A stretch of 64,000 nt of DNA from Patescibacteria group bacterium (GCA_039934415.1 JBDTME010000001.1:338785-402784); one strand, 5' to 3'. Positions 9,196-36,817 are shown, numbered from the stretch's first letter. Notes: generated by a model not told the origin, from the letters alone. Program-made: numbers and translations.

Positions 9196-10290
9196 ATGAA
9201 AAAAAAAGTTTTGATTATATTTGGTGGAAAATCGGGAGAGCATGAAGTATCCAATCGATCAGCAAAATCAATTGAACAATACCTTGATAGAGACAAATTT
9301 GAACCATATGTGTTGGGAATCACTTCAGATGGACGTTGGCATTTTGGATCAAGTGTCGAAAGTATCACTAGTAATTTACAAGTATTACCTCCTTCTGAAC
9401 ATGTTTCGCTGCCGACTGAACCAGGCAACAGAGAGTTGACTGTTCAAACAGAAAAAGGATTAGAACATCTTCAATTTGATGTTATCTTTCCAATTATTCA
9501 CGGAACAAATGGAGAGGACGGGAAGCTACAAGGACTATTGGAAATTTCCAATTTACCATATGTAGGAGCAGGAGTAATTGGATCTGCACTAGCAATGGAT
9601 AAAGTAATCCAGAAACAACTTTGTGATGGGCGAGGATTTCCTCAAACTCAGTATGAATGGTTCTGGAAACATGAATGGGAGAAAAGTGAAGATCACATAA
9701 TTGATAAAATAGAAAAAAAATTTGCATATCCAATATTTGTTAAGCCTGCAAATTCAGGTTCAAGTGTCGGCATTACCAAAGCTCATAATAAACAGGAGTT
9801 TATACACGCTGTCAAACTAGCTTTGGAATACGATTTGAAAATCTTGGTCGAAGAGGCAATTCAAGATATTGCAGAAGTTGAAGTGGGTGTACTCGGAAAC
9901 CATAAACCTAAGGCTTCAGTTTGCGGTAGCATCAAACCTAAAGCCGAGTTTTACGATTACCAAACAAAATATGTTACTGATGATATTATCGCAGAGATAC
10001 CTGCTGAAATACCTGCTGATATTTCTGAAAAAATTCGAGCTACAGCAGTAGAGGTATTTCAACTTCTCAATTGTAAAGGTATGGCTCGAGTTGACTTCTT
10101 TTATCAACCTAAAACTGGTAAATATTTTTTAAATGAAATAAACACTTTACCTGGATTCACTTCGACCAGCATGTACCCTAAATTATGGGAAGCAACTGGT
10201 CTTTCCTATACAGATTTGCTATCAGAGCTTATTGTGCTGGCAATTGAAGATTGGAAAGAAAAGCAGACGGTCAACAATAACTTAGAATAA
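9196..10290 (+). CDS. ddl: D-alanine--D-alanine ligase
   Basis: N-terminal 'KVLIIFGGKSGEHEVS'; ATP-grasp C-terminus 'MARVDFFYQPKTGKYFLNEINTLPGFTSTSMYPKLW'. Confidence 0.9.
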   Translation: MKKKVLIIFGGKSGEHEVSNRSAKSIEQYLDRDKFEPYVLGITSDGRWHFGSSVESITSNLQVLPPSEHVSLPTEPGNRELTVQTEKGLEHLQFDVIFPIIHGTNGEDGKLQGLLEISNLPYVGAGVIGSALAMDKVIQKQLCDGRGFPQTQYEWFWKHEWEKSEDHIIDKIEKKFAYPIFVKPANSGSSVGITKAHNKQEFIHAVKLALEYDLKILVEEAIQDIAEVEVGVLGNHKPKASVCGSIKPKAEFYDYQTKYVTDDIIAEIPAEIPADISEKIRATAVEVFQLLNCKGMARVDFFYQPKTGKYFLNEINTLPGFTSTSMYPKLWEATGLSYTDLLSELIVLAIEDWKEKQTVNNNLE

Positions 10291-12325: not shown

Positions 12326-14071
12326 ATGAAAAAAAAGATGAAGGCAGTTGTCTTTGTTGTTGTGCTCTACTGTCTGACCTGTTTGACAGTTGCAGCATTA
12401 GCTTCACTCATTAGTGTAAGTTCTTTTTTTAGATCCCAGTTTGGGGTCAGTAAAACAAGTTCGATCATCGCGCGCGGTGCATTGCTCCCTTATATTCAGC
12501 TTTCCAAAAAAATAAATGGGTCTTTTTTTCTTGCCTGGGAAAAAGGGTTGCTCATAGTAGAAGAAACGCCCAACTTTATCGCCCAAGCACAAAAGCTGCA
12601 GAAGACATATACAGATCATCTTCCCCTCGACCCTCAACTCATCTTTTCAACTCAGATGGAGTATTCAAAATTACTAAATGATTCGATCATCTTGCAACAA
12701 CTCATTTCGGAATCTAAGTTTGCACAAATTCTGTTGCCACTTACTAGCTACGATATCATTCAAAACCAGCTTGCACAAAATGCTCAACTCTTTCAAGCAA
12801 TTGACACTCTGCTCGACTATATCTCAAATCGCCTTGCAGAGAACAAACCAATTTCGCTACTCTTTTTATTTCAAAATAACATGGAACTACGTCCAACCGG
12901 AGGTTTTCCTGGATCCTACGCTACGTTACGCTTGGCCAAAAACGAACCCATTACATTTGAAGTTCAGGATATTTATGTGCCTGATGGTCAATTAAAAGGT
13001 CACGTTGATCCCCCACTTCCCATTCAAGAAGCGTTTCAACAAGGATTTTGGAAATTGAGAGACGCCAATTGGCATCCTGACTTTCAAGAGTCGGCAACTC
13101 GGATTAATTGGTTTTTTACTGAGGCAGGGCATGCTGACATTGACGGAATAGTGGCAATCAATTTCACAACAATTCAGAAACTTTTGGAAATTACTGGACC
13201 AGTTAAAGTGAGTGACCTCAATACAACCGTTACAACAGAAAATATATACCAAATTTTACAAAGAGCTGATGACAAAGACTTTTTTGCAGGCTCAACCAAA
13301 AAGAGGGATACTCTGTCTGCATTCACAACCCAGCTCATTTTTGAATTACAACACCTCCCGCCAAAAAAATATTTTTCGATTATCAGTCTGCTCACCACTC
13401 AGCTGAAACAAAAAGACATTTTGATTAACATTGATGATCCCGATCTGAGTACACTCATCACACTCAATCACTGGGATGGCAAATTAACACCGGTATCTTG
13501 TACTGATGACGGATGCATTCAAGATTACTTTTCAGTCTTTGAAGCAAATTTAGGGGTAAATAAATCCAATTGCTGCGTCAACAGGAACATCACTTTAGTA
13601 AAAGAACGTGATCAACAAGGTCAACTAACTACGACGTCGACCCTCCAATATCATAACCTTGGACCTGGTACTAAATTTGCTGGAGTGGCAGGTGACTACA
13701 GAGCGTTTATCCGCATTTACTTTCCAGCAAACACTCAACTCTCAACATTGGAAATAAACGATAAAAGTTATGAACAGTTTATTGCTGAAATGAAAACAGC
13801 AAAGTACTTCCATCCGATAACCAGTGATAATTTTTCTTGGGGAGATGTAGCTGGACTAAAAGAGCTAGGTATGTGGATTGAAGTTCCGCAAGAAAAAGAG
13901 CTAACAGTCGTAATTAAAACAACTAACGTGCTGTCGCATACACTACCCTACTCAATCATTATCCAAAAACAATCAGGAAGTTCGGATCAATTTAATCAAT
14001 ATAAAGTAAGTCTAGATGACCACATGCTATTTTCCGGAACTATTGCTACAGATGAACTGTTCCAACAATAA
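12326..14071 (+). CDS. large membrane-anchored extracytoplasmic protein, unknown function
   Basis: 581 aa. N-terminal TM 'VVFVVVLYCLTCLTVAAL'; no recognisable catalytic motif. Upstream of a MacAB-like module. Confidence 0.4.
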   Translation: MKKKMKAVVFVVVLYCLTCLTVAALASLISVSSFFRSQFGVSKTSSIIARGALLPYIQLSKKINGSFFLAWEKGLLIVEETPNFIAQAQKLQKTYTDHLPLDPQLIFSTQMEYSKLLNDSIILQQLISESKFAQILLPLTSYDIIQNQLAQNAQLFQAIDTLLDYISNRLAENKPISLLFLFQNNMELRPTGGFPGSYATLRLAKNEPITFEVQDIYVPDGQLKGHVDPPLPIQEAFQQGFWKLRDANWHPDFQESATRINWFFTEAGHADIDGIVAINFTTIQKLLEITGPVKVSDLNTTVTTENIYQILQRADDKDFFAGSTKKRDTLSAFTTQLIFELQHLPPKKYFSIISLLTTQLKQKDILINIDDPDLSTLITLNHWDGKLTPVSCTDDGCIQDYFSVFEANLGVNKSNCCVNRNITLVKERDQQGQLTTTSTLQYHNLGPGTKFAGVAGDYRAFIRIYFPANTQLSTLEINDKSYEQFIAEMKTAKYFHPITSDNFSWGDVAGLKELGMWIEVPQEKELTVVIKTTNVLSHTLPYSIIIQKQSGSSDQFNQYKVSLDDHMLFSGTIATDELFQQ

Positions 14072-15294: not shown

Positions 15295-16059
15295 ATGCTT
15301 CTGCAACTCAAAAACGTTTCCAAAATATATAAGCTCGGTGAAGTTGAAATTCATGCATTGCGTGAAGTCACAATACAAATCAATGAAGGTGAGTTCGTGG
15401 CTATCATGGGTCCTTCTGGTTCTGGGAAATCTACTTTTTTGCAAGTGGCCAGCATGCTCAGCGCAGTGACGTCCGGGCAAATTTTTTTGAAGGATAAACA
15501 AGTAGAAAGCTATGACGAAGTAGAACAAGCTGGGTTAAGGAATAAGGAGATCGGCTTTGTATTTCAACAGTTCAATTTATTGCCTCGCACCTCATCTCTA
15601 GACAACGTAGAACTGCCTCTGTTATACGCCAAAGTGGAAGCGTCAGAACGACACAGACGCGCTCGCGCCATGCTGGAAAAAGTTGGTCTTGGTGACCGAT
15701 TACAAAACACCCCAGCGCAGTTATCAGGAGGACAACAACAACGCGTAGCAATTGCCAGAGCATTAATTAATAACCCAATCATTATTTTTGCAGATGAACC
15801 AACGGGTAACTTGGATTCAAAAAGTGGCGAAGATATAAAAAATATTTTAAAAGATTTAAACAAAGAAGGAAAAACAATCATCATGGTCACACATGAGGAC
15901 GACGTTGCTATGATCGCCAAACGACTCGTTTTTTTTAGAGATGGCGAGATTTGCTATGACGATAAATTTGGCTGGAATAAAAGGCGTGAACAGAACTTAA
16001 AACCAGAAGATCGCAAAGAAATTGAAAGTAAGCTGAAAATGATGAAAAAGAAAAAATAA
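15295..16059 (+). CDS. ABC transporter ATP-binding protein (MacB/LolD type)
   Basis: Walker A 'GPSGSGKST', Q-loop, signature 'LSGGQQQRVAIARAL', Walker B 'IIFADEPTGNLD', H-loop 'MVTHED'. Start set at ATG 15295 (MLLQLKNVSKIY). Confidence 0.85.
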   Translation: MLLQLKNVSKIYKLGEVEIHALREVTIQINEGEFVAIMGPSGSGKSTFLQVASMLSAVTSGQIFLKDKQVESYDEVEQAGLRNKEIGFVFQQFNLLPRTSSLDNVELPLLYAKVEASERHRRARAMLEKVGLGDRLQNTPAQLSGGQQQRVAIARALINNPIIIFADEPTGNLDSKSGEDIKNILKDLNKEGKTIIMVTHEDDVAMIAKRLVFFRDGEICYDDKFGWNKRREQNLKPEDRKEIESKLKMMKKKK

Positions 16060-16060
16060 T

Positions 16061-17287
16061 ATGACATTTGCAGACACCACAAAAATTGCCATCACTTCCA
16101 TTTTTCGCAACAAAGGGCGAGCACTCTTGACCATGTTAGGCATTATTATTGGCGTAGGCTCAGTCGTTTTGCTCACTTCTATCGGTACAGGTTTACAAAA
16201 ATACATCGAAGAGCAGTTTGCCAGCTTTGGTTCAAATGTCATATATCTTGTTCCTGGAAATCCGTTTGGTGATAGCGGTGGATTTGGTAACCCTGAAGAT
16301 GCAATTATTGAACGCACAAAAAAAACGCTCAAGCTGAGCATGATTCCTCAAATCAAACGACAATTTCGCGAACATATTGCCTCAGCAGCTCCTATGTCTC
16401 TGTTCTCTGGCCAAGTGCAATACAAAATAACTGAAAAGAAAGCGACCTTCATCGGAACTACAGAAGAATTAGAGAAAGTTCTCAACAACAAAGCAGCCAA
16501 AGGCCAATGGTTCACTAAAACTGATGTTGATTCAGAAAAAAGAGTCGTACTGTTGGGAGACACTTTAGCGACAGAACTCTTTGGTGATGTCGATCCCATC
16601 AATAAATCAATCAAAATTAATACGGTTACTTTTCAAGTTATTGGTGTGCTAGAGAAAAAAGGCGGTGGTGGTTTTGGTGGACCTAGTTTCGATAGCTATG
16701 GCTATCTGCCATTCGGTACAGCAACAAAGCTGTTTAATAATGACACTTTAAATGAAATTGCCATTCAAGGTAGAAGCAAAGAAGATGTCGAACCATTGGT
16801 CAGTGATATCAAAGGATTGTTAATAGATAAATATAACCTGACAAAAGAAGATTTTACGGTCTTTGAACAAACTCAGATCTTGAATACTATTAATTCTGTA
16901 CTGAGTGTATTAACACTGGGATTAGGGGGCATCGCTGCGATCTCCTTAGTAGTAGGTGGCATCGGCATCATGAATATCATGTTAGTTACTGTCACTGAAC
17001 GTACACGCGAAATAGGTTTGCGCAAAGCGCTTGGTGCAACTCCCAATCAGATTATGTTACAGTTTTTGATCGAAGCCGCTACCTTATCTGTGTTTGGAGG
17101 AAGTATTGGTGTATTGGTTGCCTTTCTTGGATCACTTGCCATTCAACGCTTCTTTCCAGCAGCTGTTACTCTATCAGCTGTCTTGCTCGCCTTCGGTGTT
17201 TCAGCTGCAGTCGGAATTATTTTCGGAGTAGCACCTGCGCGCAAAGCCAGCAAACTCAGTCCGATTGAAGCCTTACGCTCAGAATAA
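16061..17287 (+). CDS. ABC transporter permease, FtsX/MacB-like (large periplasmic loop, four TM)
   Basis: N-terminal TM, about 220-aa periplasmic domain, C-terminal 3-TM FtsX fold with 'TERTREIGLRKALGA'. Confidence 0.8.
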   Translation: MTFADTTKIAITSIFRNKGRALLTMLGIIIGVGSVVLLTSIGTGLQKYIEEQFASFGSNVIYLVPGNPFGDSGGFGNPEDAIIERTKKTLKLSMIPQIKRQFREHIASAAPMSLFSGQVQYKITEKKATFIGTTEELEKVLNNKAAKGQWFTKTDVDSEKRVVLLGDTLATELFGDVDPINKSIKINTVTFQVIGVLEKKGGGGFGGPSFDSYGYLPFGTATKLFNNDTLNEIAIQGRSKEDVEPLVSDIKGLLIDKYNLTKEDFTVFEQTQILNTINSVLSVLTLGLGGIAAISLVVGGIGIMNIMLVTVTERTREIGLRKALGATPNQIMLQFLIEAATLSVFGGSIGVLVAFLGSLAIQRFFPAAVTLSAVLLAFGVSAAVGIIFGVAPARKASKLSPIEALRSE

Positions 17288-25374: not shown

Positions 25375-26172
25375 GTGTTGAAGACTCTCTCTTTTTTCAA
25401 ATATAAGTTGTTGCGTTCTCTGCAATTTCGCTGGGAAGTTTGTTTGTGGATTTGCCTTGACATGATTCCCTTTGGCGTAATGTTTCTTGTTTTGCGCTCA
25501 ATGTATCAGAATCGCTCAGTTATCCACTCCTACACATCAGGCCAAATGATTTTTTACTATTTTATGGTCGTGTTGATTAGTGGGATGAGTTCAACACATT
25601 TTGAAGGGTGGCGAATTGAGGAAATAAGAAGAGGACAGATAGATGTCTATTTACTGCGTCCGTTCTCATATTTAAAAGAAATCTTATTGAATGATTTAGC
25701 CGGTAAACTATTATATATACTTCTTTTTACCCCAATATATATCGGTTTCTACTTCTTAGCTCAATCTATTCTGCCTTTTACACTCCCGACCTTCACTGCA
25801 ACGACCTTATTGCTTTTTATTTTCTTCATCATTTTTGCTTATGTTGTGGAAATGTGCATTGGGATATCGATCGTTCTACTGGGTTTTTGGTTTGAAGGTT
25901 CACAAGGACTCGAACATTTTAAATGGATTTCGATCACGCTGTTGAGTGGCTCAATGATCCCACTGGAGTTCTTACCACCTTGGCTCAAAAACATTACTGC
26001 TCGGTTACCTTTTCAATATATGTATGCTTTCCCTATCAATCTCATTCAAGGTAGGGCAACTTTTTCTCTCTCAGATTTTGCTATTATCCTAATAAGTTGT
26101 ATAGTTCTATTTGGACTCGTTACACTCCTCTGGAAAAAAGCACTCTACACTTATACGTCGAGCGGTGGGTAG
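25375..26172 (+). CDS. ABC-2 family transporter permease (paralog of the permeases at 33410, 35221, 36020)
   Basis: Six hydrophobic helices. C-terminal 'YTYTSSGG' motif shared with 'KKYSSAGS', 'KDYSAAGQ' and 'KQYSSASS' of the downstream paralogs. Confidence 0.5.
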   Translation: MLKTLSFFKYKLLRSLQFRWEVCLWICLDMIPFGVMFLVLRSMYQNRSVIHSYTSGQMIFYYFMVVLISGMSSTHFEGWRIEEIRRGQIDVYLLRPFSYLKEILLNDLAGKLLYILLFTPIYIGFYFLAQSILPFTLPTFTATTLLLFIFFIIFAYVVEMCIGISIVLLGFWFEGSQGLEHFKWISITLLSGSMIPLEFLPPWLKNITARLPFQYMYAFPINLIQGRATFSLSDFAIILISCIVLFGLVTLLWKKALYTYTSSGG

Positions 26173-26763: not shown

Positions 26764-28224
26764 ATGTCGTCAAAAGAAAACCCCAGAATCCGGTTAGAAC
26801 GCAATGAAGATGGAAAGTTGCAGGTCGTTGGGAAGCGATTAGAGAATACCAAAGCATTTGCTGCAGCTTTTTTGCCATTTATAGAAGAAATTGGTAACAT
26901 CCTGACGAACGAATACCCAGATGATAATCGCGTAGCAATGAAGCTGCTACAAATCATGCAGTTAGATGGAGATTATACCATCGGTGAAGCTGCAGCTGCA
27001 GCATTGAGTGATCCTGACGCTAAAAGAGCTGAGATGCCTCGAGCTATGCAGGAAACATTAGGTAAAGGTATTCTGTGGTACGAATCTTTCGGTCCAGAAA
27101 ACGATCTTAGGCTTTTAGTACGTAAACTTTTACTTCTAAAGCAGGGTGGCGGAGCAGCTCGTAAGAATGTTGAACAACTGGTTGGCAATGCCAAAAAAAT
27201 TATCGATGAAATGAAAGAATCTGGGACACATGCAGACGTTGATATTGTGTGGACAAACGCACGGCTTGCAAATCTTAATCTCCTTTTCGCTGATGGGCAG
27301 TTTACACCAGAGGAAATGCGCCAACTTTTTGATCGTGCAGAATGGGGATTTGATCACCTGCTTCAAACACAACTCTGGCACAGCGTCCTTTCTAAAGTTC
27401 CCGGCATGGGTGCTCGGATTCGTTTTCCAGGCAAGAAAAAGATGCAACATATTGTGAAAGGAACACTTAAAAAAATGACAAGTTCCTATGACATTGCCAA
27501 AGTACGTGAACTGATGCAAGACAATGATCCCCGTCAAACTGACATTCCGTTCTTACTACTACTTGCAGAAGGTTTGCGAGGAAAATTATCTGAGCACGCA
27601 AAAAAAAACTTACCGTTACATCATCGTGACGTCATTGAACACACAACCGGAAATATTCTTCAAACGCTCTTTGCAGCGACAGAGACTTCATTTGCTGAAA
27701 TTAAACGCATGATGATCAAACTGCAGGATCCAAAATTATTTGCACAACTAAAAGCGGAAGCTCTAGCTGCGTTACCCAACGGATTAGCCTCAATTACTCC
27801 AGAGACACTCATGAGAGGCGATCTTTTTCCCAAATTAGTTGCTGAAATTCATGACAGTTTTCGTAATCCGCCAACTCCACTTGATCAACGAGTGAATGTT
27901 GATCCGGAGACCGGCGAGGAGTCTACAACATATATTGGGTTACAAGCCATGACTGAGAATGCCTATCGTCAACAGGTGTACACAACATTCTCCCAACTTG
28001 TTAGAGGTGAGTGGTTTGCTAATGTCAATAAACTTTCAACACCAGACAAAAAATACAGTAATCCTCGAGATTGTCCAGGAGCAACTTGGGCAATTACTGA
28101 GATCATGTGCACTATACTAGCTATTTTGTTAGAGACAAATGGAGTGAGATTGGCCAACAAGCCAGTGGAATTTAAAGGCGTTACTAGCACTCCTCGCAAT
28201 GTGAATGTCCAATTTATTTCCTAA
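26764..28224 (+). CDS. hypothetical protein, 486 aa, no recognisable domain
   Basis: Long, soluble, helix-rich ORF. Visibly higher GC than neighbouring genes. No signal peptide and no catalytic motif I can name. Confidence 0.45.
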   Translation: MSSKENPRIRLERNEDGKLQVVGKRLENTKAFAAAFLPFIEEIGNILTNEYPDDNRVAMKLLQIMQLDGDYTIGEAAAAALSDPDAKRAEMPRAMQETLGKGILWYESFGPENDLRLLVRKLLLLKQGGGAARKNVEQLVGNAKKIIDEMKESGTHADVDIVWTNARLANLNLLFADGQFTPEEMRQLFDRAEWGFDHLLQTQLWHSVLSKVPGMGARIRFPGKKKMQHIVKGTLKKMTSSYDIAKVRELMQDNDPRQTDIPFLLLLAEGLRGKLSEHAKKNLPLHHRDVIEHTTGNILQTLFAATETSFAEIKRMMIKLQDPKLFAQLKAEALAALPNGLASITPETLMRGDLFPKLVAEIHDSFRNPPTPLDQRVNVDPETGEESTTYIGLQAMTENAYRQQVYTTFSQLVRGEWFANVNKLSTPDKKYSNPRDCPGATWAITEIMCTILAILLETNGVRLANKPVEFKGVTSTPRNVNVQFIS

Positions 28225-28298: not shown

Positions 28299-29240
28299 TC
28301 AAATCGATAAACTTCTCTTTAAAAGATTAGAGAAATTATCGAACGAAATTCTTTGAACAACGTCTTTGTCTAGTTTCTTCAAAAGATAATTCTGAAAATC
28401 TTTTATAACAGTCATATTCTGAGCGTTGTTTACAAATGGATACTCAGGTAAAGGGAAGATATCGGAGCAAAGAGCAACCCTATCATCTCCCCATTTAGAC
28501 GCAATATAGTCTAGATGTTTATACCAGTCATCAAAAGTACCGTTACCACCAACTTCATCTTTAGTTGGCAGCAAACAAACTAAACCATCGTGATCCACAA
28601 TCATTTGAATCTGATCGTCAGAAAGATTATGGGGTAAATCAACAATTGCTTTGGCATTTGCATGAGTATTAACAATAATTCCATCAAAACTTTTATCCAA
28701 ATCAACAAACGAACGATCACTTAAATGAGCAGTATCAACTATCAGGCGATGGTTGCTCATCTTTTTTAGTAAAGCTTTCCCTCTATTAGTAATTCCAAAA
28801 TCATTTTTCGATCCGTTTCCTGTTGCATAGTCGTTTGCAAATTCCCAGGTCAACCCAAAGGAACGAACGCCGATATCGTAAAAAGTTTCAAAATCATTTT
28901 CATCTCGAAGACACTCCAGACCTTCAATTGAATAAAAGAACCCGACTTTATCAGAAGGAAGATCTTCTACTTCAGTCCTACTCTTAATCTGTATTAATTC
29001 ATTAGTTTTAGACAAGAGTTCTTTATAAAATTCGAAGTAATTCATAACACCATCAAACATATTTGTTTGAATCAGGTTCGGATCCATAAAAAGTGTAAAA
29101 CCAACAATCCTTATTTCAGTCTCCTTCAGCATTGAAAGAGTCACTGGAATATCTTTTCGTTGGCTAAAAAAATCGTCTATGGGAATTTTAAATTCGTCAT
29201 ATATGGAGGCTATGTCAATGTGTGGATCAATAAGTTCCAT
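28299..29240 (-). CDS. membrane dipeptidase (peptidase M19 / renal dipeptidase)-like metallohydrolase
   Basis: Matches M19 landmarks: 'DPHIDI' (H.D metal site), 'SIEGLE' (bridging Glu), 'GVRSFGLTWEF', 'IVDTAHLSDRSF', 'IVNTHANAKAI', 'VALCSDIF'. Confidence 0.6.
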   Translation of the reverse strand: MELIDPHIDIASIYDEFKIPIDDFFSQRKDIPVTLSMLKETEIRIVGFTLFMDPNLIQTNMFDGVMNYFEFYKELLSKTNELIQIKSRTEVEDLPSDKVGFFYSIEGLECLRDENDFETFYDIGVRSFGLTWEFANDYATGNGSKNDFGITNRGKALLKKMSNHRLIVDTAHLSDRSFVDLDKSFDGIIVNTHANAKAIVDLPHNLSDDQIQMIVDHDGLVCLLPTKDEVGGNGTFDDWYKHLDYIASKWGDDRVALCSDIFPLPEYPFVNNAQNMTVIKDFQNYLLKKLDKDVVQRISFDNFSNLLKRSLSI

Positions 29241-29295
29241 ATTTTTAGTTACTAATTGTAAGTTATTAGCAACTTTATAGTTATTTCCATCACCT

Positions 29296-29400
29296 TCTGA
29301 GCTGGTAACCGTAATTGGCTCGGACCTACAAGACTTGGTTACTCCAGGTTTAATTTTACAACTTTAGGCTCTTAAAAACCATCTCAAGAGTGTTGATTTC
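29296..29400 (+). repeat. island repeat copy R1 (degenerate; frame interrupted by TAG)
   Basis: 'GAGCTGGTAACCGTAATTGGCTCGGACCTACAAGACTTGGTTACTCCAGGTTTAATTTTACAACTTTAG...' aligns with R2-R4. Lies 59 nt from the start of the M19-like gene. Confidence 0.7.
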
Positions 29401-29456
29401 TGTTTGTTTCAGGAGGTTTTTGGCAAAAAAAGGTAACAAATGTTATACTTCCGATA

Positions 29457-30014
29457 ATGAAAGAAAATCCATTTCTAAAAGGGTCTGTAGCCAAGGATCA
29501 AGATGGTGTTGAGGTCAACGCAGAGCTAGAAGCTGTTGTAAAAAGAATTGCATCTTTACTTCCTCACGATGTTCTCTTTGAACTGTTTTCAAGTAGCCCA
29601 AATGAAACAGGTGGTAGATCAGAATTCCCATATTGTCGTGTCGACTCGCAATTGATTGTTAGTAGAAATTGGGTTTATATATTTGAACAGTACGGAGCAA
29701 AAGATCAAGAAGATTTTAAGAGAATCTATGAAGCAGCTGCAACCTCAGCTTTCAAGGCGATTGTATGGGTAGAAGTTGGATTCCAAAATCTAGATAACTT
29801 AGCAGTAAGTCCTGCTTCTAGAAATTGGACAAGCGGAGTAGGACATTTTGTGAATGACCAACAAAGAGCGGAAGGAATAAGAACCGCAGGTAGAGGAATG
29901 TATAAACAAATGTTGAACAGGTTTGTCCAATTTAGAGACGCTAACCAAGTTGATAGTGATATTTTTAATAGGTACAACGTCGAAGGTTTGCTAGATAAAT
30001 TCAGGTCTGGCTAA
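29457..30014 (+). CDS. hypothetical protein
   Basis: 185 aa, soluble, no motif recognised. The only plus-strand ORF inside the island. Preceded by repeat copy R1 and followed by R2. Confidence 0.4.
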   Translation: MKENPFLKGSVAKDQDGVEVNAELEAVVKRIASLLPHDVLFELFSSSPNETGGRSEFPYCRVDSQLIVSRNWVYIFEQYGAKDQEDFKRIYEAAATSAFKAIVWVEVGFQNLDNLAVSPASRNWTSGVGHFVNDQQRAEGIRTAGRGMYKQMLNRFVQFRDANQVDSDIFNRYNVEGLLDKFRSG

Positions 30015-30157
30015 AAGGGATAGTATTTGTAAAATTATTCTACCGATCGTCTCCTAATCTTCCAGGCCAGGCTAACACTAAAAAACGAAAAACCTGGTTA
30101 GAACCCCGCTGAAAGCGGATTTCAAGGCTAATTTTGATGAAGTTGCAAAACCATTAC

Positions 30158-30277
30158 CGTATGGAGCTGGTGACCGTACTTCGCTCGGACCTGCGAGATC
30201 TTATAACTACAGATTTAATTCTTCAACTTAACACGCTAAAGAGACATATAAGTATCAAAAGTTTTACTCATTGTTGA
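30158..30277 (+). repeat. island repeat copy R2; contains the 38-aa ORF 30161..30277 (MELVTVLRSDLRDLITTDLILQLNTLKRHISIKSFTHC)
   Basis: About 80-85% identical to R3 and R4. ATG at 30161, TGA at 30275-30277. Overlaps the 3' end of the minus gene 30264..30968. Confidence 0.75.
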
Positions 30278-30968
30278 GCCTAAACGAAGAAATAATCTCT
30301 TGTATATCTGCATAATAAGGCTTGGTAGTCTCTAAAGGTGTCCCACCTACTGAGATAAAATATCCTTTTCTCTCGAAAACAAAAACAGAGTTTGATGATG
30401 ATATCAATTCATAACCTTGAATATTATTAATAGTTTTAGGCATAGCTTTATACCCGTGCTGATCAACAGAATATTTTATATATTCTTGAAAACTCGAATA
30501 ATTAGGATTTGGCTTGCTTACCCCAATCGTAAAATAAGCTCCACTAAGTAATTCACCATGGTCTAAAGATGTACTGAGGGCTGTTATATCGCAAATATTT
30601 CTATCTAACCAATTATTGTCTTGTGGTTTGGTGCAGTTTAATTTCCAATCTTTTGGATATTGAAAACTAAATTGATATTCTTCATCTGAATACGTGAGTA
30701 CATTAAGGTTAGAATTCGTTGTAGGTGTTGGAGATGTTTGAGTAGCAACTGACTCAATGGGTTTTTCATCTTTTAGGTAGGTGTTGTTAGAATTCAGTGA
30801 TTGTGTACCCAGATAGTATCCTCCTAAGCCAAAAATAATTGCACAAACTAAAACAGTTAACAAAACTGGTACTATCAATCTTGATTTTGTTTGCGAAGAA
30901 GCAGGCGATTGAATAGTTGGAGTTGGATTTATAGAGACATCTGGGTTAGTTATTTGGGGATTTTCCAT
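30264..30968 (-). CDS. membrane-anchored hypothetical protein with extracytoplasmic domain
   Basis: P/S/T-rich N-terminus, single TM 'LIVPVLLTVLVCAIIFGLGGYYL', about 170-aa C-terminal domain with 2-3 Cys. Confidence 0.45.
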   Translation of the reverse strand: MENPQITNPDVSINPTPTIQSPASSQTKSRLIVPVLLTVLVCAIIFGLGGYYLGTQSLNSNNTYLKDEKPIESVATQTSPTPTTNSNLNVLTYSDEEYQFSFQYPKDWKLNCTKPQDNNWLDRNICDITALSTSLDHGELLSGAYFTIGVSKPNPNYSSFQEYIKYSVDQHGYKAMPKTINNIQGYELISSSNSVFVFERKGYFISVGGTPLETTKPYYADIQEIISSFRLNNE

Positions 30969-31034
30969 AGTAAATAAATACTAACACTTTTTGATGACAT
31001 TGTTTTATGTAACTTTCTGTACATTTCTGTCACT

Positions 31035-31154
31035 TTGGAGCTGGTAACCGTACTTCGCTCGAACCTACGAGACTTAGTTACTCCAGATTTAATTTTACAA
31101 CTTAATGCTCTAAAGAGCCATATAAGTGTTGAGAGTTTTAGAAAAAATTGCTGA
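31035..31154 (+). repeat. island repeat copy R3; contains the 39-codon ORF (TTG)LELVTVLRSNLRDLVTPDLILQLNALKSHISVESFRKNC
   Basis: Core 'GGAGCTGGTAACCGTACTTCGCTCGAACCTACGAGACTTAGTTACTCCAGATTTAATTTTACAACTTAATGCTCTAAAGAGCCATATAAGTGTTGAGAGTTTT'. TGA at 31152-31154, 4 nt from the kinase gene stop. Confidence 0.75.
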
Positions 31155-31157
31155 TAT

Positions 31158-32132
31158 TTACATCTCCAAAGCTTTAGTAATAAGCTCCATACCTTCTTCA
31201 ATTTCTTTTTCATCAAATGGAAATTCTTGCGTTTCTGTGGCCCATAGCTCCCAAAGACCTTGAGATAGCGCATATCTTTGTAATCTAGTCTTTTCATCTG
31301 CGGACATAACTTCTTGTCCATAGCCTGCTAAAAAAGCATCTTGATCAAATTCATCACCAAGTTGGAAATTGATAGGAAATTTTTGGAAATCATAGTAAGG
31401 GTCTCCAAGTGTGGACATTTCAAAATCAAATACTCCCACGATTTCGCCATTTCTCACTTGAAAATTATTACAGCTAAAATCTCCATGAATTAAAGCGACT
31501 TTTTTTGAAAGATTGCCTAAAGATGCATATTCTTTCAATACAACTTCAATACCATAAACAATCTTTTCTGAAAGTAACCGCTTTTTCTTCACCAGGTCTA
31601 GGTATTCAGCAAACTCTGATTTTATCGTTTTATTCCAATCTTCCATATTTCCAAATAATTCACTCCTTAATGATATTTTGCTAATATCAGTGGAGTGAAT
31701 TTTCTTTGCAATCTCACCTAACTGAAATGCCAACTTGTATTGAACTTCTTTACTTCCTTTTTTAAAGGCTTCAGTAAGTGTCTCCCCTTCGATATAGCTA
31801 ATAAGAAGATAGTCTTCTTTTATTATTTCTCCACTAAAATCATGAGCAATGCATTTTGGAGTTGGAATATGAGATTCAGAAAGTAACGAATATAACAGCG
31901 CCTCTTTTTTAAATTTTTGTTTATTTTCTTTTGTCTGCTTTGTATTTACTCGAAGGATATATTGTTTGTTTACAATAAAAACTGGATTAATTAAGCCCGT
32001 TTTTATTTCGTCAAACGTGAAGAGTTGACCCAGTTTATATTTCTGAAGAATTTTGCTAATGGTTTCTTCCGAAATGACGAAGGTATCTTTCATGTATGTA
32101 ACATTATGTACGTTCCTGTTTACTTCTATCAT
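31158..32132 (-). CDS. phosphotransferase enzyme family protein (APH / choline-kinase-like small-molecule kinase)
   Basis: Brenner motif 'LIHGDFSCNNFQV' (HGD....N) and metal-binding 'VGVFDFEMSTLGDPYYDF' (DFE...D). Confidence 0.7.
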   Translation of the reverse strand: MIEVNRNVHNVTYMKDTFVISEETISKILQKYKLGQLFTFDEIKTGLINPVFIVNKQYILRVNTKQTKENKQKFKKEALLYSLLSESHIPTPKCIAHDFSGEIIKEDYLLISYIEGETLTEAFKKGSKEVQYKLAFQLGEIAKKIHSTDISKISLRSELFGNMEDWNKTIKSEFAEYLDLVKKKRLLSEKIVYGIEVVLKEYASLGNLSKKVALIHGDFSCNNFQVRNGEIVGVFDFEMSTLGDPYYDFQKFPINFQLGDEFDQDAFLAGYGQEVMSADEKTRLQRYALSQGLWELWATETQEFPFDEKEIEEGMELITKALEM

Positions 32133-32133
32133 T

Positions 32134-32277
32134 TTGGGAGCTGATAACCGTACTTGGCTCGAACCTACGAGACTTGATTACTCCAGGTTTAATTCTACAA
32201 CTTAACGCTCTAAAGAGCCATATAAGTATCGAGAGTTTTGCAGATATGAGCTGGGTTGATGATAGAAGTGCCGCTTA
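32134..32277 (+). repeat. island repeat copy R4 (same frame open through to TAG 32275-32277)
   Basis: Starts 2-6 nt from the kinase gene start codon at 32132. Overlaps the 3' end of the minus gene 32202..32843. Confidence 0.75.
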
Positions 32278-32843
32278 GAAGTTTTTTCTGTAGAAGAGAA
32301 GTTTATGAAAGAGCTAAGTAAAAGTAGGGCTCCAAGGGTTAACATAATAAGAGCTCCTAAAAAGTATTTATCTAGACCAAAGGCTTTAGGGGAATTAATA
32401 CTGAAATTTAATACTTTCTTGTCATCTTCATTTAACCTTTTGAATAATTCTTTCTTTGTAATCTGTAAAGTTAGAAACTCTTTGTATAAAGACAACCTAG
32501 GACTAAGTAGAGAATGCCACTTTTCGCCCATTTCTTGATAAGAATTTCCCTTGGACTTATTATAAAAAAATAAAATGGACATACCAAAAACGATCAAAGT
32601 TAAAAGCATTAATTCACCAAGAAAGAATAGAGGGCGATTTACAACATTTCCTAAAGCAGAAAATCCAAACCCAGCAATAACGCCCACGCTAGTCAAAAAA
32701 GTATAGAACAGCCCTACAGATTGTTCGTCTAGCTTACTCAATTTTTCTTCATAGGAACCCATCAGATCTATATATGTCTTATGAAACTGATTAGACTCAG
32801 CTTGAATCTCTTTAAATTCTTTTTCTGTGAAGTCCAAAGTCAT
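32202..32843 (-). CDS. membrane protein, unknown function
   Basis: 213 aa, three hydrophobic helices. Last about 13 codons overlap repeat copy R4. Confidence 0.4.
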   Translation of the reverse strand: MTLDFTEKEFKEIQAESNQFHKTYIDLMGSYEEKLSKLDEQSVGLFYTFLTSVGVIAGFGFSALGNVVNRPLFFLGELMLLTLIVFGMSILFFYNKSKGNSYQEMGEKWHSLLSPRLSLYKEFLTLQITKKELFKRLNEDDKKVLNFSINSPKAFGLDKYFLGALIMLTLGALLLLSSFINFSSTEKTSKRHFYHQPSSYLQNSRYLYGSLER

Positions 32844-32864
32844 GGGGCAATTATAACATCTGGG

Positions 32865-33071
32865 CTAAAGTTCTTTAGACAAACCGTTTTTGCTTTCTAC
32901 AGTTAGTTTCTTTTTTTGAACGGCCTTTTTTATCACATACTCAAACAACGAAAGCAAAGCGAATCCTTGTTCAAAAGCTTGTTCGTCTGTCAACCTTATT
33001 CCGTATTCTTCAAAAGCAATCTTTTTAAACTCTTCTAGTTCATCCTTGGTAAATGTAACTTCTTCTTCCAT
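32865..33071 (-). CDS. small acidic hypothetical protein
   Basis: 68 aa, E/K-rich. 21 nt upstream of the 32202..32843 gene, so probably co-transcribed. Confidence 0.35.
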   Translation of the reverse strand: MEEEVTFTKDELEEFKKIAFEEYGIRLTDEQAFEQGFALLSLFEYVIKKAVQKKKLTVESKNGLSKEL

Positions 33072-33170
33072 AGGTTCTATTCTCCTTAAGGGTATTTAGT
33101 ATTCCAGGCTAAAGGAAAATACTTCTATTTAAGGAATAGAACTTGAGAAAATGCTGTCTTCTTGAGAAGT

Positions 33171-33350
33171 TTGGAATCACGACAAAATAAGTCCGGTTAT
33201 GAGCGGGTAACGGGAATTGGACCTTTTCTTTTTTTTCTGTATGAATTGCTTACTCCTCATTTAATTTTACAATTGTATATGTTGAGGGATCATTTGAGTA
33301 TTCGTAGTTTTAGAGATGAATGTTAAGTTTTTTGAATGATAACGATCTAT
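33171..33350 (+). repeat. island repeat copy R5 (diverged, in-frame indels; frame open to TAA 33345-33347)
   Basis: 'GAGCGGGTAACGGGAATTGG...TTACTCCTCATTTAATTTTACAATTGTATATGTTGAGGGATCATTTGAGTATTCGTAGTTTTAGAGATGAATGTTAA'. Encodes '..LTPHLILQLYMLRDHLSIRSFRDEC'. Confidence 0.6.
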
Positions 33351-33409: not shown

Positions 33410-34159
33410 ATGAATTTGATGGTGATGTTGGAGTATCGCGCTGATTTTTTGTTTTGGGGTTTTGTGTCGGTGATGTGGACTGCATTTAATTTTTTCTTTA
33501 CCGGCATTATCGTTGGCAGCTCCGGTTTTCTTGCAGGATGGAATACAGATGAAGTATTCGTATTACTATCTATTTTTACTATCTACGATGCATTTACCTG
33601 GTCATTCTTTTACTTCAATATGCAACGGTACATGAATAAAGTGTTTACCGGTGAGCTCGATATGTTCCTGGTCAAGCCAGTTGATCCTCAGTTCATGTTG
33701 TCAGTGGAACACAACAGCTATAACAATTTATTCCGCCTATTCATTGGGATCGGCATGCTGATCATTTCGCTGATTCATTTAAACAAACCCATTACCCTCT
33801 TTTCATTCCTGATCTTCGTCATCATGTTCGTACTCGGATTTATACTCACCTACTCAGTTTGGTTCATGTTCGCCACGATCTCTTTCTGGGTTGATCGCCT
33901 CGATAATTTAAACGACGTCATGCCATCTCTCCGCCGCTTGTCTCAACTCCCCCGCAGTGTCTACAGCGGTGTTTCCTCCTTTTTATTCTGCATGGTCCTA
34001 CCGGTTGTTCTCGTCACGTCAATTCCTGCAGAAGCACTAGTCCACAAAATATCGCCACTCTGGAATTTATACTATACAGTCTTCACACTCGTCATTTTTT
34101 GGGTGAGTCGCCGATTCTTTTATTATTCTATAAAAAAATATAGTAGTGCCGGAAGTTAA
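33410..34159 (+). CDS. ABC-2 family transporter permease
   Basis: Six TM helices. Family with the C-terminal 'KKYSSAGS' motif. First gene of a four-gene transporter operon. Confidence 0.6.
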   Translation: MNLMVMLEYRADFLFWGFVSVMWTAFNFFFTGIIVGSSGFLAGWNTDEVFVLLSIFTIYDAFTWSFFYFNMQRYMNKVFTGELDMFLVKPVDPQFMLSVEHNSYNNLFRLFIGIGMLIISLIHLNKPITLFSFLIFVIMFVLGFILTYSVWFMFATISFWVDRLDNLNDVMPSLRRLSQLPRSVYSGVSSFLFCMVLPVVLVTSIPAEALVHKISPLWNLYYTVFTLVIFWVSRRFFYYSIKKYSSAGS

Positions 34160-34215: not shown

Positions 34216-35202
34216 ATGTCACTCATTTCCGTCAAAAATTTAAAAAAGTATTACAAAGTCTATAAAAAAGAGCCTGGTTTGTGGGGTTCGATCAAGTCAT
34301 TATGGCATCGAGAGTATGAAGAGGTTAAAGCCGTAGATGACGTTAGTTTCGAGATTGAACAAGGCGAAATAGTTGGTTTCATCGGTCAAAATGGGGCAGG
34401 CAAAACGACAACATTGAAAGTATTGTCTGGTCTGCTCTTTCCAACAGGAGGTAGTGTCTCAGTACTCGGTTTCAATCCCTGGGAGCGAAAACCTGAGTTT
34501 CAAAAGCAATTTGCATTAGTAATGGGACAGAAAAACCAGCTGTGGTGGGATTTACCTGCCATGGAGAGTTTCCTTCTTAACAAAGCAATTTATGAAGTGC
34601 CAGATGCTCAGTTCAAAAAAACGTTAGACAAGTTAGTGACCTTACTTGATGTCAAAGATGTTCTGAATATTCAAGTCCGCAAGCTGTCCCTCGGTCAACG
34701 CATGAAGTGCGAACTCATTGCTGCCTTGCTGCACAGTCCAAAAGTGTTATTTCTCGACGAGCCAACGATCGGGCTCGACGTCGTCATGCAGAAAGTACTG
34801 CGCGATTTTATTCGTGACTATAACAAAGAGTTCGGCGCTACCATTATCCTAACCAGTCACTACATGGATGACGTCAAAGAACTCTGTAAACGCGCCATCA
34901 TCATCGATCACGGTCACAAAATCTTCGATGGAAAACTGCAAGACATCATCGATACCTATGCTCGCAACAAAATCATCTCTGTTGTCTTGAGTGAAAAAGT
35001 CAGTCGGGAAAAACTGGAAAAATTTGGCGAACTCAAATCATACGAAGATCCTCAAGCAACCTTACTCGTTCCTCGTAAAAAAGCCGCCGAAGTTGCTGGC
35101 CGGATGATCGCAGAACTACCTGTAGAAGACGTCAATATTGAAGAACCACCGATTGAAGCGATTATCAGAGAAGTTTTTCAAACTGGTAAAACAACTGGCT
35201 AG
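34216..35202 (+). CDS. ABC transporter ATP-binding protein with C-terminal accessory domain
   Basis: Walker A 'GQNGAGKTTT', signature 'LSLGQRMKCELIAALL', Walker B 'LFLDEPTIGLD', H-loop 'LTSHYMDD', plus about 90 extra C-terminal residues. Confidence 0.85.
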   Translation: MSLISVKNLKKYYKVYKKEPGLWGSIKSLWHREYEEVKAVDDVSFEIEQGEIVGFIGQNGAGKTTTLKVLSGLLFPTGGSVSVLGFNPWERKPEFQKQFALVMGQKNQLWWDLPAMESFLLNKAIYEVPDAQFKKTLDKLVTLLDVKDVLNIQVRKLSLGQRMKCELIAALLHSPKVLFLDEPTIGLDVVMQKVLRDFIRDYNKEFGATIILTSHYMDDVKELCKRAIIIDHGHKIFDGKLQDIIDTYARNKIISVVLSEKVSREKLEKFGELKSYEDPQATLLVPRKKAAEVAGRMIAELPVEDVNIEEPPIEAIIREVFQTGKTTG

Positions 35203-35220: not shown

Positions 35221-36012
35221 ATGCAAAAATATTGGCAACTTTTCCTACTTTCTTGGCAAAACGGCTTGGTTTATCGGACCAGTTTACTCATGTGGCGATT
35301 ACGGCAATTTCTGTCTACGGTGATGGCCCTCACAGTCTGGAGCGTGCTATTCAATTCTTCCTCATCTTTATTTGGCTACGATCGAACACAAATGACTACC
35401 TATATTTTTCTGGTGGGCATCTTACAGAGTCTCATTCTAGCCACTGGTTTAAATGGATTATCCAATCAAGTTTACTCCGGCAGCTTTAGTTTTGACTTAC
35501 TCAAACCGATTAATATTTATGTCTATTTATTCGTCCAGGACATGGCCGATAAAGCAAAAAACGTTTTTTTTGTTGTGATCGAGAGTATTATTTTATTCTT
35601 ACTATTTAAACCAAGTATCTTTTTCCCATCAATCGAAACAGCCATCATTTTCTGCATCTGGGTGCTGGGAGCTGTACTCTTGCTGTTTTTTATCCAACTC
35701 ATTTTTGGTTCATTCGGTTTCTACAGCCCAGAGACTTGGGGTCCCCGTTTTCTCTTTTTCATGTTCGTTGATTTTACCGCCGGAAAATTGTTTCCATTAG
35801 ATATTTTGCCACCCATAATTAGAACTTTCGTCGGCTTTACTCCTTTTCCTTACTTTTCATTTTGGCAGATTCAACTTTTCTTGGGCAAACTGTCACCAAT
35901 GGAAATTGGCCAACATACTGTTGTACTAAGTATCTGGATCGCAATAGCAGGTTATGTCAGCTTTTCACTTTGGCAAAAAGGTATTAAAGATTACAGTGCG
36001 GCTGGTCAATAA
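35221..36012 (+). CDS. ABC-2 family transporter permease
   Basis: Six TM helices; C-terminal 'KDYSAAGQ'. Confidence 0.6.
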   Translation: MQKYWQLFLLSWQNGLVYRTSLLMWRLRQFLSTVMALTVWSVLFNSSSSLFGYDRTQMTTYIFLVGILQSLILATGLNGLSNQVYSGSFSFDLLKPINIYVYLFVQDMADKAKNVFFVVIESIILFLLFKPSIFFPSIETAIIFCIWVLGAVLLLFFIQLIFGSFGFYSPETWGPRFLFFMFVDFTAGKLFPLDILPPIIRTFVGFTPFPYFSFWQIQLFLGKLSPMEIGQHTVVLSIWIAIAGYVSFSLWQKGIKDYSAAGQ

Positions 36013-36019
36013 GAAATAT

Positions 36020-36817
36020 ATGTTTAAACGATTTAAAGTCTACTCTACAGTCTGGTTTATTATTGCATCCAACGCTGTGCAAGAAACCTTTGTGAATCGT
36101 TGGAGTAATGTTCTATTTTTTTTAGGGAAAGCAATCCGGTTAGGCATGTCCCTAATAGTACTGTTGCTCATCAAACAAGCCACTAAAGGATTTGGTCAGT
36201 ACAGCACAGATGAAATGATTGTTTTCTTTTTAACATACCAGTTGCTCGACATCGTTGGTCAAATTTTTTATCGTGGAGTGTACATGTTTAGCAACATGGT
36301 GCGCAGTGGAGAGTTTGACCTGTTTTTGTCAAAACCAATCAATCCTCTTTTTCGCGCATTAACTGGTCAACCAGACATCAATGATGTGTTTTTTCTCATA
36401 CCAAATCTAATCATCAGCGGTTACATCTTGAGCAAACTGAATATCACTATCACAGTCGGTTCAGCTGTGTTATATGCAGCACTCTTATTGAACAGTTTTC
36501 TGATCGTCACTGCTCTACATATCTTGGTTTTAACAATTGGAGTTATCACTACCGAGGTGGATGGAGTGATCTGGATGTATCGAGATCTGATTCGTCTCGG
36601 TCAATTCCCCGTCTCAGTCTATGCAGAACCATTGCGCTTTGCACTTTTTTTCATCATTCCGATTGGTGTCATGATCACAATTCCAGCTGAAGTATTGTTA
36701 AACACACCAGTCACTTATAGTATTTTCCTGTCAACTCTGATTGGAGTTGGCTCACTTTTTATTAGCTTACGACTTTGGGATTGGGGTATCAAACAATATA
36801 GCAGTGCGAGTAGCTAA
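36020..36817 (+). CDS. ABC-2 family transporter permease
   Basis: Start set at ATG 36020 (MFKRFKVYS); six TM helices; C-terminal 'KQYSSASS'. Confidence 0.55.
   Translation: MFKRFKVYSTVWFIIASNAVQETFVNRWSNVLFFLGKAIRLGMSLIVLLLIKQATKGFGQYSTDEMIVFFLTYQLLDIVGQIFYRGVYMFSNMVRSGEFDLFLSKPINPLFRALTGQPDINDVFFLIPNLIISGYILSKLNITITVGSAVLYAALLLNSFLIVTALHILVLTIGVITTEVDGVIWMYRDLIRLGQFPVSVYAEPLRFALFFIIPIGVMITIPAEVLLNTPVTYSIFLSTLIGVGSLFISLRLWDWGIKQYSSASS

Follow-up and report, generated by a model that had tools for sequence, protein, structure and literature searches.

A tandem array of small cassettes in a Patescibacteria genome with protein-encoding repeats that are probably junctions of repeated integration at tRNA-Gly

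Site-specific accretion is known from work on ICESt1 and ICESt3 of Streptococcus thermophilus and their cis-mobilizable elements (CIMEs), which are bounded by attL- and attR-type sites, have no recombination genes of their own and could be moved by a recombinase in trans; CIMEs are deletion derivatives of large conjugative elements and sit at a protein-coding target. The ssrA islands of Dehalococcoides carry their own recombinase, are many kilobases long and have short non-coding repeats. A report on these bacteria describes their islands as integrated site-specifically at a small stable RNA gene, ssrA (transfer-messenger RNA, tmRNA) (PMC3146451). In Prochlorococcus, a partial tRNA copy can be all that lies between neighbouring tycheposons, and the islands contain what is left of degenerated elements (10.1101/2020.12.28.424599). 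Bacteria of the Candidate Phyla Radiation (CPR) have very small genomes with few recognisable mobile elements, and their acquisition of accessory genes is poorly understood; a study of gene transfer in Patescibacteria reports hundreds of islands with no mention of tRNA targets or cassettes (PMC12455944). Here we analyse a stretch of 64,000 nucleotides (the window) from a Patescibacteria group bacterium (GCA_039934415.1 JBDTME010000001.1:338785-402784) in which a repeated element of ~105-115 nucleotides (nt) separates small genes in the region 29.3-33.3 kb. A full-text search of the literature, incomplete in its coverage, returned no description of this arrangement, and an earlier description elsewhere is possible.

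We consider it probable that these repeats are the attachment-site junctions of a tandem array of small cassettes that integrated one after another at the 3' end of tRNA-Gly. Both the junction anatomy and the anchoring at tRNA-Gly are solid and recur across several lineages of the Microgenomates group, and in our reading the repeat is primarily a recombination junction, made of a P arm, a core and a P' arm left by serial insertion, and not the product of small-gene duplication. Read on the minus strand, which is how the tRNA is oriented in related loci, P would be the conserved arm, which encodes a small protein on its opposite strand, the core (O) would be the relic of a tRNA-Gly 3' end, and P' would be a conserved, promoter-like flank of ~45 nt that leads into the next cargo gene.

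The initial annotation had described five copies of the element, R1 to R5, and a repeat search together with nhmmer indeed recovered four close copies and a diverged fifth. R1 to R4 are direct copies of 106 nt at 29295, 30160, 31034 and 32134 with 77-91% identity to R3 as the reference in the repeat search (67-91% between pairs over a 102-nt core), and an nhmmer profile places them at 29288-29400, 30155-30270, 31028-31143 and 32127-32244 with 103-123 bits each, R1 scoring 103 bits. R5 is only a distant relative: its match in the repeat search is a 35-nt core at 33243, and nhmmer places it at 33193-33315 with only 34.5 bits. A 28-nt core pattern with up to three mismatches matches three times in the window versus not once in 100 shuffles. 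All copies in the window are confined to one array, whose G+C content (0.34-0.36) is below that of its surroundings (~0.40). The repeats do lie at cassette boundaries and travel with the cassettes as had been proposed, and the distances given from R1, R3, R4 and R5 to the starts of minus-strand genes (59, 67, 6 and 100 nt) are correct.

Homologous copies, gathered by scanning metagenome contigs and a single genome for each species with an exact pattern, are true homologues only in CPR genomes (Levyibacteriota, Daviesbacteria and Pacebacteria) and in many groundwater or sediment metagenome contigs, some of which hold 2-4 copies; the remaining pattern matches are due to chance. The related loci (L numbers) come mostly from Microgenomates-group genomes and from groundwater or sediment metagenomes. 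Metagenome SRR26386571 contains the R5 side of this window, and Hainich (Hain-) and ANAN16 samples also have such arrays. ARAGORN found a tRNA-Gly in almost every locus with enough sequence on the right side, giving 18 independent cases (L009, L013, L021, L025, L026, L031, L033, L034, L035, L037, L039, L044, L045, L046, L048, L053 and two in L055), and in 18 of 18 it terminates the array, lying on the other strand from the small open reading frame (ORF) and on the side to which the ORFs point. All three tRNA-Gly isoacceptors (CCC, TCC and GCC) serve in this position, while the opposite end of the array often has tRNA-Thr(CGT) or tRNA-Arg(TCT). The related arrays have 1-4 junctions and cassettes of 1-2 genes, with four junctions across about 10 kb in L053. 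In L055, elements at 9920-10146 and 15474-15671 lie beside two tRNA-Gly genes (gcc 12422-12496, tcc 17160-17234) within a cluster of nine tRNAs.

Two other kinds of element were rejected. A miniature inverted-repeat transposable element (MITE) or a repetitive extragenic palindromic (REP)-type repeat, the former of which the initial annotation had named as a finding that would overturn its reading, does not fit, as there are no inverted repeats in or around the copies, the window holds a single array, and copies in other genomes stand beside tRNA-Gly and are not dispersed. A phage-borne element was dismissed as well, since the pattern scan of viral contigs gave matches at chance level only.

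The link to tRNA-Gly extends into the element itself. In tRNA orientation the element ends with ...GGTTCGAGC..GGTTACC(A/C)GCTCC(A), similar to the T-loop and acceptor end of tRNA-Gly, which read ...GGTTCGA....ACCCGCTCCA. The closest match is the relic in R5, in which 21 of 23 nt equal positions 50-72 of the tRNA-Gly of L034 and L046 (E 0.003), the best hit anywhere in the window when 14 real tRNA-Gly genes were compared with all of it by blastn-short. After the relic, R1, R3 and R4 share ~45 nt (aaagtgacagaaatgtacagaaagttac...) that recur behind real tRNA-Gly genes: a P' profile made solely from element flanks matches directly 3' of tRNA-Gly in L009, L026, L034 and L046, and window positions 31009-31044 have 94.6% identity with the tRNA-Gly 3' end and its downstream flank in L009 and L026. 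R5, together with the adjoining gene of 68 amino acids (aa) and its upstream flank, is syntenic with a real tRNA-Gly and its flank in L025.

Displaced tRNA fragments are seen in two related loci. At 3027-3095 (plus strand) of L039, a tRNA-Gly 3' fragment of ~38 nt (ggtcgccggttcaatcccggtctgccgctcca) is found 25 nt beyond the resident tRNA-Gly(ccc) and precedes the flank that R1, R3 and R4 share; its acceptor is unlike that of the resident tRNA, and it looks like an arrival from another host. At 2032-2130 of L057 (minus-strand reading), ~50 nt of a tRNA-Gly(CCC), from the anticodon stem to the CCA and hardly different from the tRNA of L044 over its 3' part, sit between an older relic (...GGTTACCAG) and a type-3 flank (see below), and this fragment translated on the other strand is the N-terminus MERDTGIGPASYPWEGYV of protein P0060. 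Given the R5 match, the shared flank and these two fragments, the small ORF begins with ~11 codons (ELVTVLRSNL; ERVTGIGP in R5) that are antisense tRNA sequence. A complete tRNA or a tRNA pseudogene on the minus strand was considered and rejected: the arm has pieces resembling a D-arm, an anticodon arm and a T-loop in the right order, yet ARAGORN and the Rfam tRNA model return nothing for it, a 5' acceptor strand is missing and full-length copies have 81 more coding bases in the middle of the arm, leaving only the 3'-end relic standing. The element is likewise neither an array of clustered regularly interspaced short palindromic repeats (CRISPR) nor a canonical attC site, in agreement with the initial annotation.

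On the other side of the core, three unrelated classes of flank start 0-2 nt from the tRNA-like end GCTC(C)(A). Type 1 accompanies R1, R3 and R4 as well as several full-length copies, and it also follows real tRNA-Gly genes; type 2 (ataaccggact...) is present at R5, after the real tRNA-Gly of L025, and in L011; and type 3 (atacggtaatgg...) is present at R2, L031, L026 and L057. The flank of R2 is common to L031 (85.4% identity over 199 nt for window positions 30067-30265, blastn) and is shared with L026 only over its element-proximal part. Short and full-length arms occur with different flank types. This switch of flanks at one fixed point indicates a precise crossover point, and a fixed switch beside a sequence too short for efficient homologous exchange is as predicted for site-specific recombination at the core.

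The array comprises five cassettes of 0.8-1.1 kb with the cargo on the minus strand in four of the five, and cargo ORF ends enter R2 and R4. Its features, from left to right, are as follows.

28299..29240, minus strand: M19-family membrane dipeptidase of 313 aa, the leftmost cargo (Pfam Peptidase_M19, E 7.9e-47)
29253..29297, minus strand: P' arm of type 1 beside R1, ~45 nt, promoter-like, directed toward the dipeptidase gene (P' profile, E 8.1e-05)
29299..29433, plus strand: R1 junction, a degenerate tRNA-like core and then a short ORF broken by a TAG (nhmmer)
29457..30014, plus strand: cargo of 185 aa without a family match, the only plus-strand cargo gene
30067..30160, minus strand: type-3 flank beside R2, beginning right after the tRNA-like end GCTCC (blastn and alignment)
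30161..30277, plus strand: R2 junction with a short-form ORF of 38 aa and an ATG start (MELVTVLRSDLRDLITTDLILQLNTLKRHISIKSFTHC)
30264..30968, minus strand: cargo of 234 aa, weakly PsbP_2-like (Pfam, 26.3 bits, just under the 27-bit cut-off), with its 3' end entering the tail of R2
30995..31037, minus strand: P' arm of type 1 beside R3 (P' profile, E 4.2e-06)
31035..31154, plus strand: R3 junction with a short-form ORF of 39 aa, a TTG start and the palindrome GCTCTAAAGAGC
31158..32132, minus strand: cargo, APH-family phosphotransferase (Pfam APH, E 1.4e-28)
32092..32136, minus strand: P' arm of type 1 beside R4 with a sigma-70-like match (ATGATA, 18-nt spacer, CATAAT) (P' profile, E 3.7e-06)
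32138..32278, plus strand: R4 junction, short-form frame open, no start codon at the usual place
32202..32843, minus strand: first cargo gene of the R4-R5 cassette, 213 aa, no family match, 3' end inside R4
32865..33071, minus strand: second cargo gene of the R4-R5 cassette, 68 aa, no family match
33162..33326, plus strand: R5 junction with a diverged small ORF of 54 aa (nhmmer, 34.5 bits, and alignments)
33201..33223, minus strand: tRNA-Gly 3' relic inside R5, from the T-loop to the acceptor end GGTCCAATTCCCGTTACCCGCTC, the best-preserved in the window

Because the first ATG of the APH-family ORF sits within the P' arm, its true start is likely the ATG at 32093, leaving the flank (32093-32132) non-coding; matches of this ORF in NCBIfam are far under the cut-offs for resistance families. 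The small ORF of R5 joins an N-terminus that is antisense tRNA-Gly (ERVTGIGP) to a C-terminal LTPHLILQL...SIRSF that corresponds to the conserved arm.

Cassettes are reused between arrays. The APH cassette recurs in L033 with different neighbours (82.6% identity over 1167 nt), a cassette homologous to that of the 234-aa gene is found at another position in L034, and further cassettes are common to several arrays. This sharing, the 80-96% identity of junctions across different CPR lineages and the failure to find a recombinase in cis in about 20 loci would also be compatible with a role of the junctions as portable homology, in which 110-250 bp of shared sequence anchor RecA-dependent recombination of incoming DNA, for instance after natural transformation, and cassettes are swapped or added without any dedicated site-specific recombinase, the tRNA relic being an ancient part of the repeat. 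We regard this explanation as unlikely given that the change from one flank class to another falls 0-2 nt from the tRNA-like end, that junctions contain nested, fresh pieces of tRNA-Gly (23-50 nt) from other hosts, and that the arrays begin exactly at the tRNA-Gly 3' end. These are hallmarks of site-specific integration and are not predicted by homologous exchange.

Under serial integration at tRNA-Gly, a circular cassette with P-O-P' would recombine with the tRNA-Gly 3' end in a Campbell-type event, each new insertion would displace older cassettes outward, and each internal boundary would be a regenerated P-O-P' unit; the small ORF would be part of the P arm on every cassette and would start inside the tRNA relic. 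We infer that the joining is done by a site-specific, probably tyrosine, recombinase acting in trans and that P' drives expression of the cargo. From its size, its place at the core and its occurrence in every cassette, we guess that the small protein may be a directionality or accessory recombination factor, or else a regulator transcribed divergently from P'.

That the small frame encodes a protein is a real signal. The comparison of R2 and R3 with which the initial annotation had introduced it proved exact (19 of 102 positions differ, distributed 8/0/11 over codon positions 1/2/3, with six synonymous codon changes), and a codon-position count, which it had suggested for the five copies, gave minor-allele counts of 102, 52 and 146 at positions 1, 2 and 3 across 25 non-redundant copies in the plus-strand frame. 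Over 23 independent gap-free short copies from other genomes and metagenomes, the ratio of nonsynonymous to synonymous polymorphism (pN/pS) is 0.34 in this frame versus 0.49-1.43 in the other five, bearing out the claimed protein-level constraint, and none of 200 column shuffles reached a value as low as 0.34. The plus-strand frame has two stops in 782 codons (23 x 34) while the other frames have 9-107, and the 12 tail codons outside the constraint of the search pattern give a pN/pS of 0.27. Leucine codons alternate between CTT and TTA among copies. The start codon is not conserved, being ATG in R2 and TTG in R3 with none in R1 or R4, and the in-frame TAG noted in R1 is confirmed at 29365-29367. 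A diversity-generating retroelement was ruled out, as no reverse transcriptase domain is found among the neighbours, the differences affect all bases with codon positions in the order 3 > 1 > 2, and none of the copies forms the 3' end of a larger gene.

The 38-aa peptide that had been taken as the unit of this repeat is in fact a shortened form. In metagenome contig L033 the element also occurs in longer versions, in which this frame runs open through 56-87 codons, and the 87-aa version as a query retrieved 36 small proteins of 47-109 aa, none of which has a Pfam domain. A profile search of 1.84 billion cluster representatives gave 54 clusters (at 50% identity), nearly all of stand-alone proteins of about 50-110 aa, for a family of about 75-80 aa with the consensus MELVTVIGSDLFSQDEYIKQYLLDPDLPLITKIKIGLRYYITADLILQLNxLKEHLGIKSF. 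R1 to R5 can be aligned with this family over the N-terminal ELVTV..SNL and the C-terminal ITPxLILQL..K.H segments. DNA alignment shows R1, R3 and R4 to be the full-length gene minus 81 nt, an in-frame internal deletion of 27 of about 77 codons, in copies that are often startless, while the middle of R5 is different from and shorter than that of the full-length gene. The tail of R1 (NHLKSVDFCLFQEVFGKK) is of the full-length type (full-length protein profile, E 4.2e-09; 85.7% with L033).

The small protein has no sequence match in Pfam, PHROG, NCBIfam or the PDB, its AlphaFold model of five helices is weak (predicted local distance difference test, pLDDT, of 66), and a Foldseek search of this model against the PDB found no structural neighbour. 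We rejected the idea that the element is the C- or N-terminal end of a larger target gene, since protein searches returned almost only stand-alone ORFs of about 47-164 aa, apart from three longer proteins (265-755 aa) with weak similarity over part of their length (E 7.6e-06 to 7.3e-04). As side observations on the family, proteins P0055 and P0069 have a 13-aa insert PARNAFSIADAGG in common after the N-terminal tRNA-relic segment, which may be another inserted repeat, and the copies at L037 996-1134 and L039 4526-4625 (both minus strand) have a frame-breaking 23-nt insert after CCGTACTT, which reads GGTTCGAGCCCTTCGACAAGCTCA on the minus strand and resembles the 3' end of another tRNA.

Protein-level constraint in a single frame, membership in a real family of small ORFs and the presence of one copy per cassette boundary are also what one would expect of a cargo-linked mini-gene, be it a regulator, an antisense partner or an immunity-like peptide, that was duplicated together with each cargo gene, and a self-standing unit of this kind had been the original interpretation of the repeat. 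We now consider it quite improbable. The cargo genes are mutually unrelated (dipeptidase, kinase, HAD, glycosyltransferase, NUDIX and others), the start codon varies or is missing and a stop interrupts R1, copies in the window are without 27 of about 77 codons, and the first 11 codons, the 5' third of the short form, are antisense to the tRNA-Gly 3' relic, next to a flank that is the same as the sequence after real tRNA-Gly genes. Duplication alone moreover leaves the location at tRNA-Gly unexplained.

A third alternative is a non-mobile intergenic regulatory repeat, meaning a promoter or terminator module or a structured RNA. It would find some footing in the left flank, which is promoter-like and faces the cargo: type-1 flanks have -35/-10-like hexamers in this direction (GTGACA or GTGGCA, 17-18 nt, CATAAA or CATAAT). 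In a consensus promoter scan only the P' arm of R4 passes (32132-32103, minus strand), as a consensus match only, and promoter-like sites in the window are no commoner than in shuffles; because of these two results, a promoter role of P' is an inference only. The short palindrome GCTCTAAAGAGC in the arm would be another point in favour of a regulatory repeat. Against it, folding of all five copies on both strands, a check proposed in the initial annotation, gave energies no different from those of shuffles (z -0.85 to +0.87), changes in putative stems follow codon positions and are not compensatory, Rfam has no match for the element, and neither the anchoring at tRNA-Gly nor the coding signal would be explained. 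We thus hold a purely regulatory repeat to be very improbable. The palindrome itself has 12 nt, lies in the conserved arm at 31107-31118 in R3 and 32207-32218 in R4, and may be a protein-binding site; L037 keeps it offset by one base (GTGCTCTCAAAGCAC on the plus strand).

Several observations weigh against serial integration at tRNA-Gly, our favoured reading. In the 64-kb window ARAGORN finds no tRNA and Rfam no family at threshold, so the array is not at a tRNA-Gly now, and either the tRNA of the window was lost or the array has moved. The relic of R1 to R4 is degenerate, with likeness only at the T-loop GGTTCGAG and the end CCAGCTCC and 4-5 extra bases between them, and in this state it could not restore a functional tRNA. 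The repeat had been said to mark every junction, yet nhmmer finds no copy on the far (left) side of the leftmost cassette, that of the dipeptidase gene at 28299-29240. No match to Phage_integrase, Resolvase or Recombinase was found for the 35 window ORFs scanned, which include all those in or beside the array, and no recombinase appeared among 10 ORFs of related loci, among the 25 families listed of 80 matched by 96 further ORFs of related loci, or beside arrays in the gene tables of long contigs. Circular or excised forms of the cassettes were not seen. Finally, lasting protein-level constraint on a 38-aa remnant that is often startless is unexplained by a pure scar model.

The only tyrosine recombinase encountered is an XerC/D-like gene 6 kb from a junction in one organism (L048, L049 and L051), which lies beside cell-division genes and is probably a housekeeping enzyme. 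At the left edge of the array, a 486-aa ORF (26764-28224, plus strand) was considered as a possible new recombinase and matches nothing in Pfam, NCBIfam or PHROGs. R5 is followed on its right by ABC-2 transporter genes and then a ribosomal protein operon. Four paralogous ABC2_membrane_6 permease genes flank the array (25375-26172, 33410-34159, 35221-36012 and 35954-36817, the last two overlapping by 59 nt) together with an ATPase gene (34216-35202), and the array may split a transporter operon, or the right-hand transporter genes may themselves be cargo. The window is without a tRNA or an Rfam family despite its long ribosomal-protein operon and rpoB/rpoC region.

A wider proposal, which we put forward only tentatively as a possibility, is that CPR bacteria of the Microgenomates group capture genes at tRNA-Gly in an integron-like manner. 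Cassettes of one or two genes would carry a long, conserved attP-like site and be inserted in succession at the tRNA 3' end by a recombinase encoded elsewhere in the genome, with the small protein of every junction as a new accessory or directionality factor. If true, minimal genomes would have in it a main way to gain and shuffle accessory metabolism. The junction is in any case a compact sequence marker for a flexible hot spot by tRNA-Gly in several Microgenomates-group lineages and delimits the cargo genes. Should a recombinase in trans move the cassettes, they would form an integron-like system that differs in how its site is built and that includes a new small protein; otherwise, the arrays still document clearly that integration occurred repeatedly at one tRNA family.

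Among known systems, integrons resemble these arrays in their mostly co-oriented single-gene cassettes, each of which ends in a conserved element like a recombination site, in the entry of some cargo ORFs into that element, and in having no recombinase inside the cassettes. Unlike in integrons, no intI or attI was found beside the array, in the window or in related loci, and the head of the array is tRNA-Gly in the related loci. The element is, unlike attC, not an imperfect palindrome, its DNA folding energies match those of shuffles as given above, and it has no RYYYAAC / GTTRRRY (R''/R') cores on direct reading; the AAC...GTT pairing covers just about 45 nt, and in R2, L011 and L013 it is disrupted by substitutions whose placement reflects the codon positions. 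Both of the features that define integrons, intI/attI and the attC palindrome, are thus missing. The element instead holds a tRNA relic and a coding region, and the cassettes appear to bring a promoter-like flank with them. Unlike CIMEs, the cassettes are all tiny and occur in large numbers and in many lineages, and a parent element that carries an integrase was not identified.

In the way they work, the arrays appear closest to integrative elements that accrete in tandem at tRNA genes. As in tRNA islands, the boundary repeats copy the 3' part of the target tRNA (R5, the degenerate R1 to R4 and the 38-50-nt fragments of L039 and L057). An intact tRNA stands at one end of the array in the 18 related loci, with side and strand constant, and not in this window. 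On our reading the arrays share with tycheposons insertion at the 3' part of a tRNA, the outward displacement of older elements, partial tRNA copies between elements or scattered, and adaptive or metabolic cargo in streamlined genomes (10.1101/2020.12.28.424599). Unlike tycheposons, the units described here have 0.8-2.4 kb with one or two genes, and no integrase, replication module or other hallmark gene was found in them; their junctions of 110-250 nt are conserved across lineages and encode a small protein, their hosts are CPR bacteria and their target is tRNA-Gly. Accretion of islands anchored at tRNA genes and integron-like single-gene cassettes are thus both known, and what is new is a variant with a long, conserved junction that encodes a protein.

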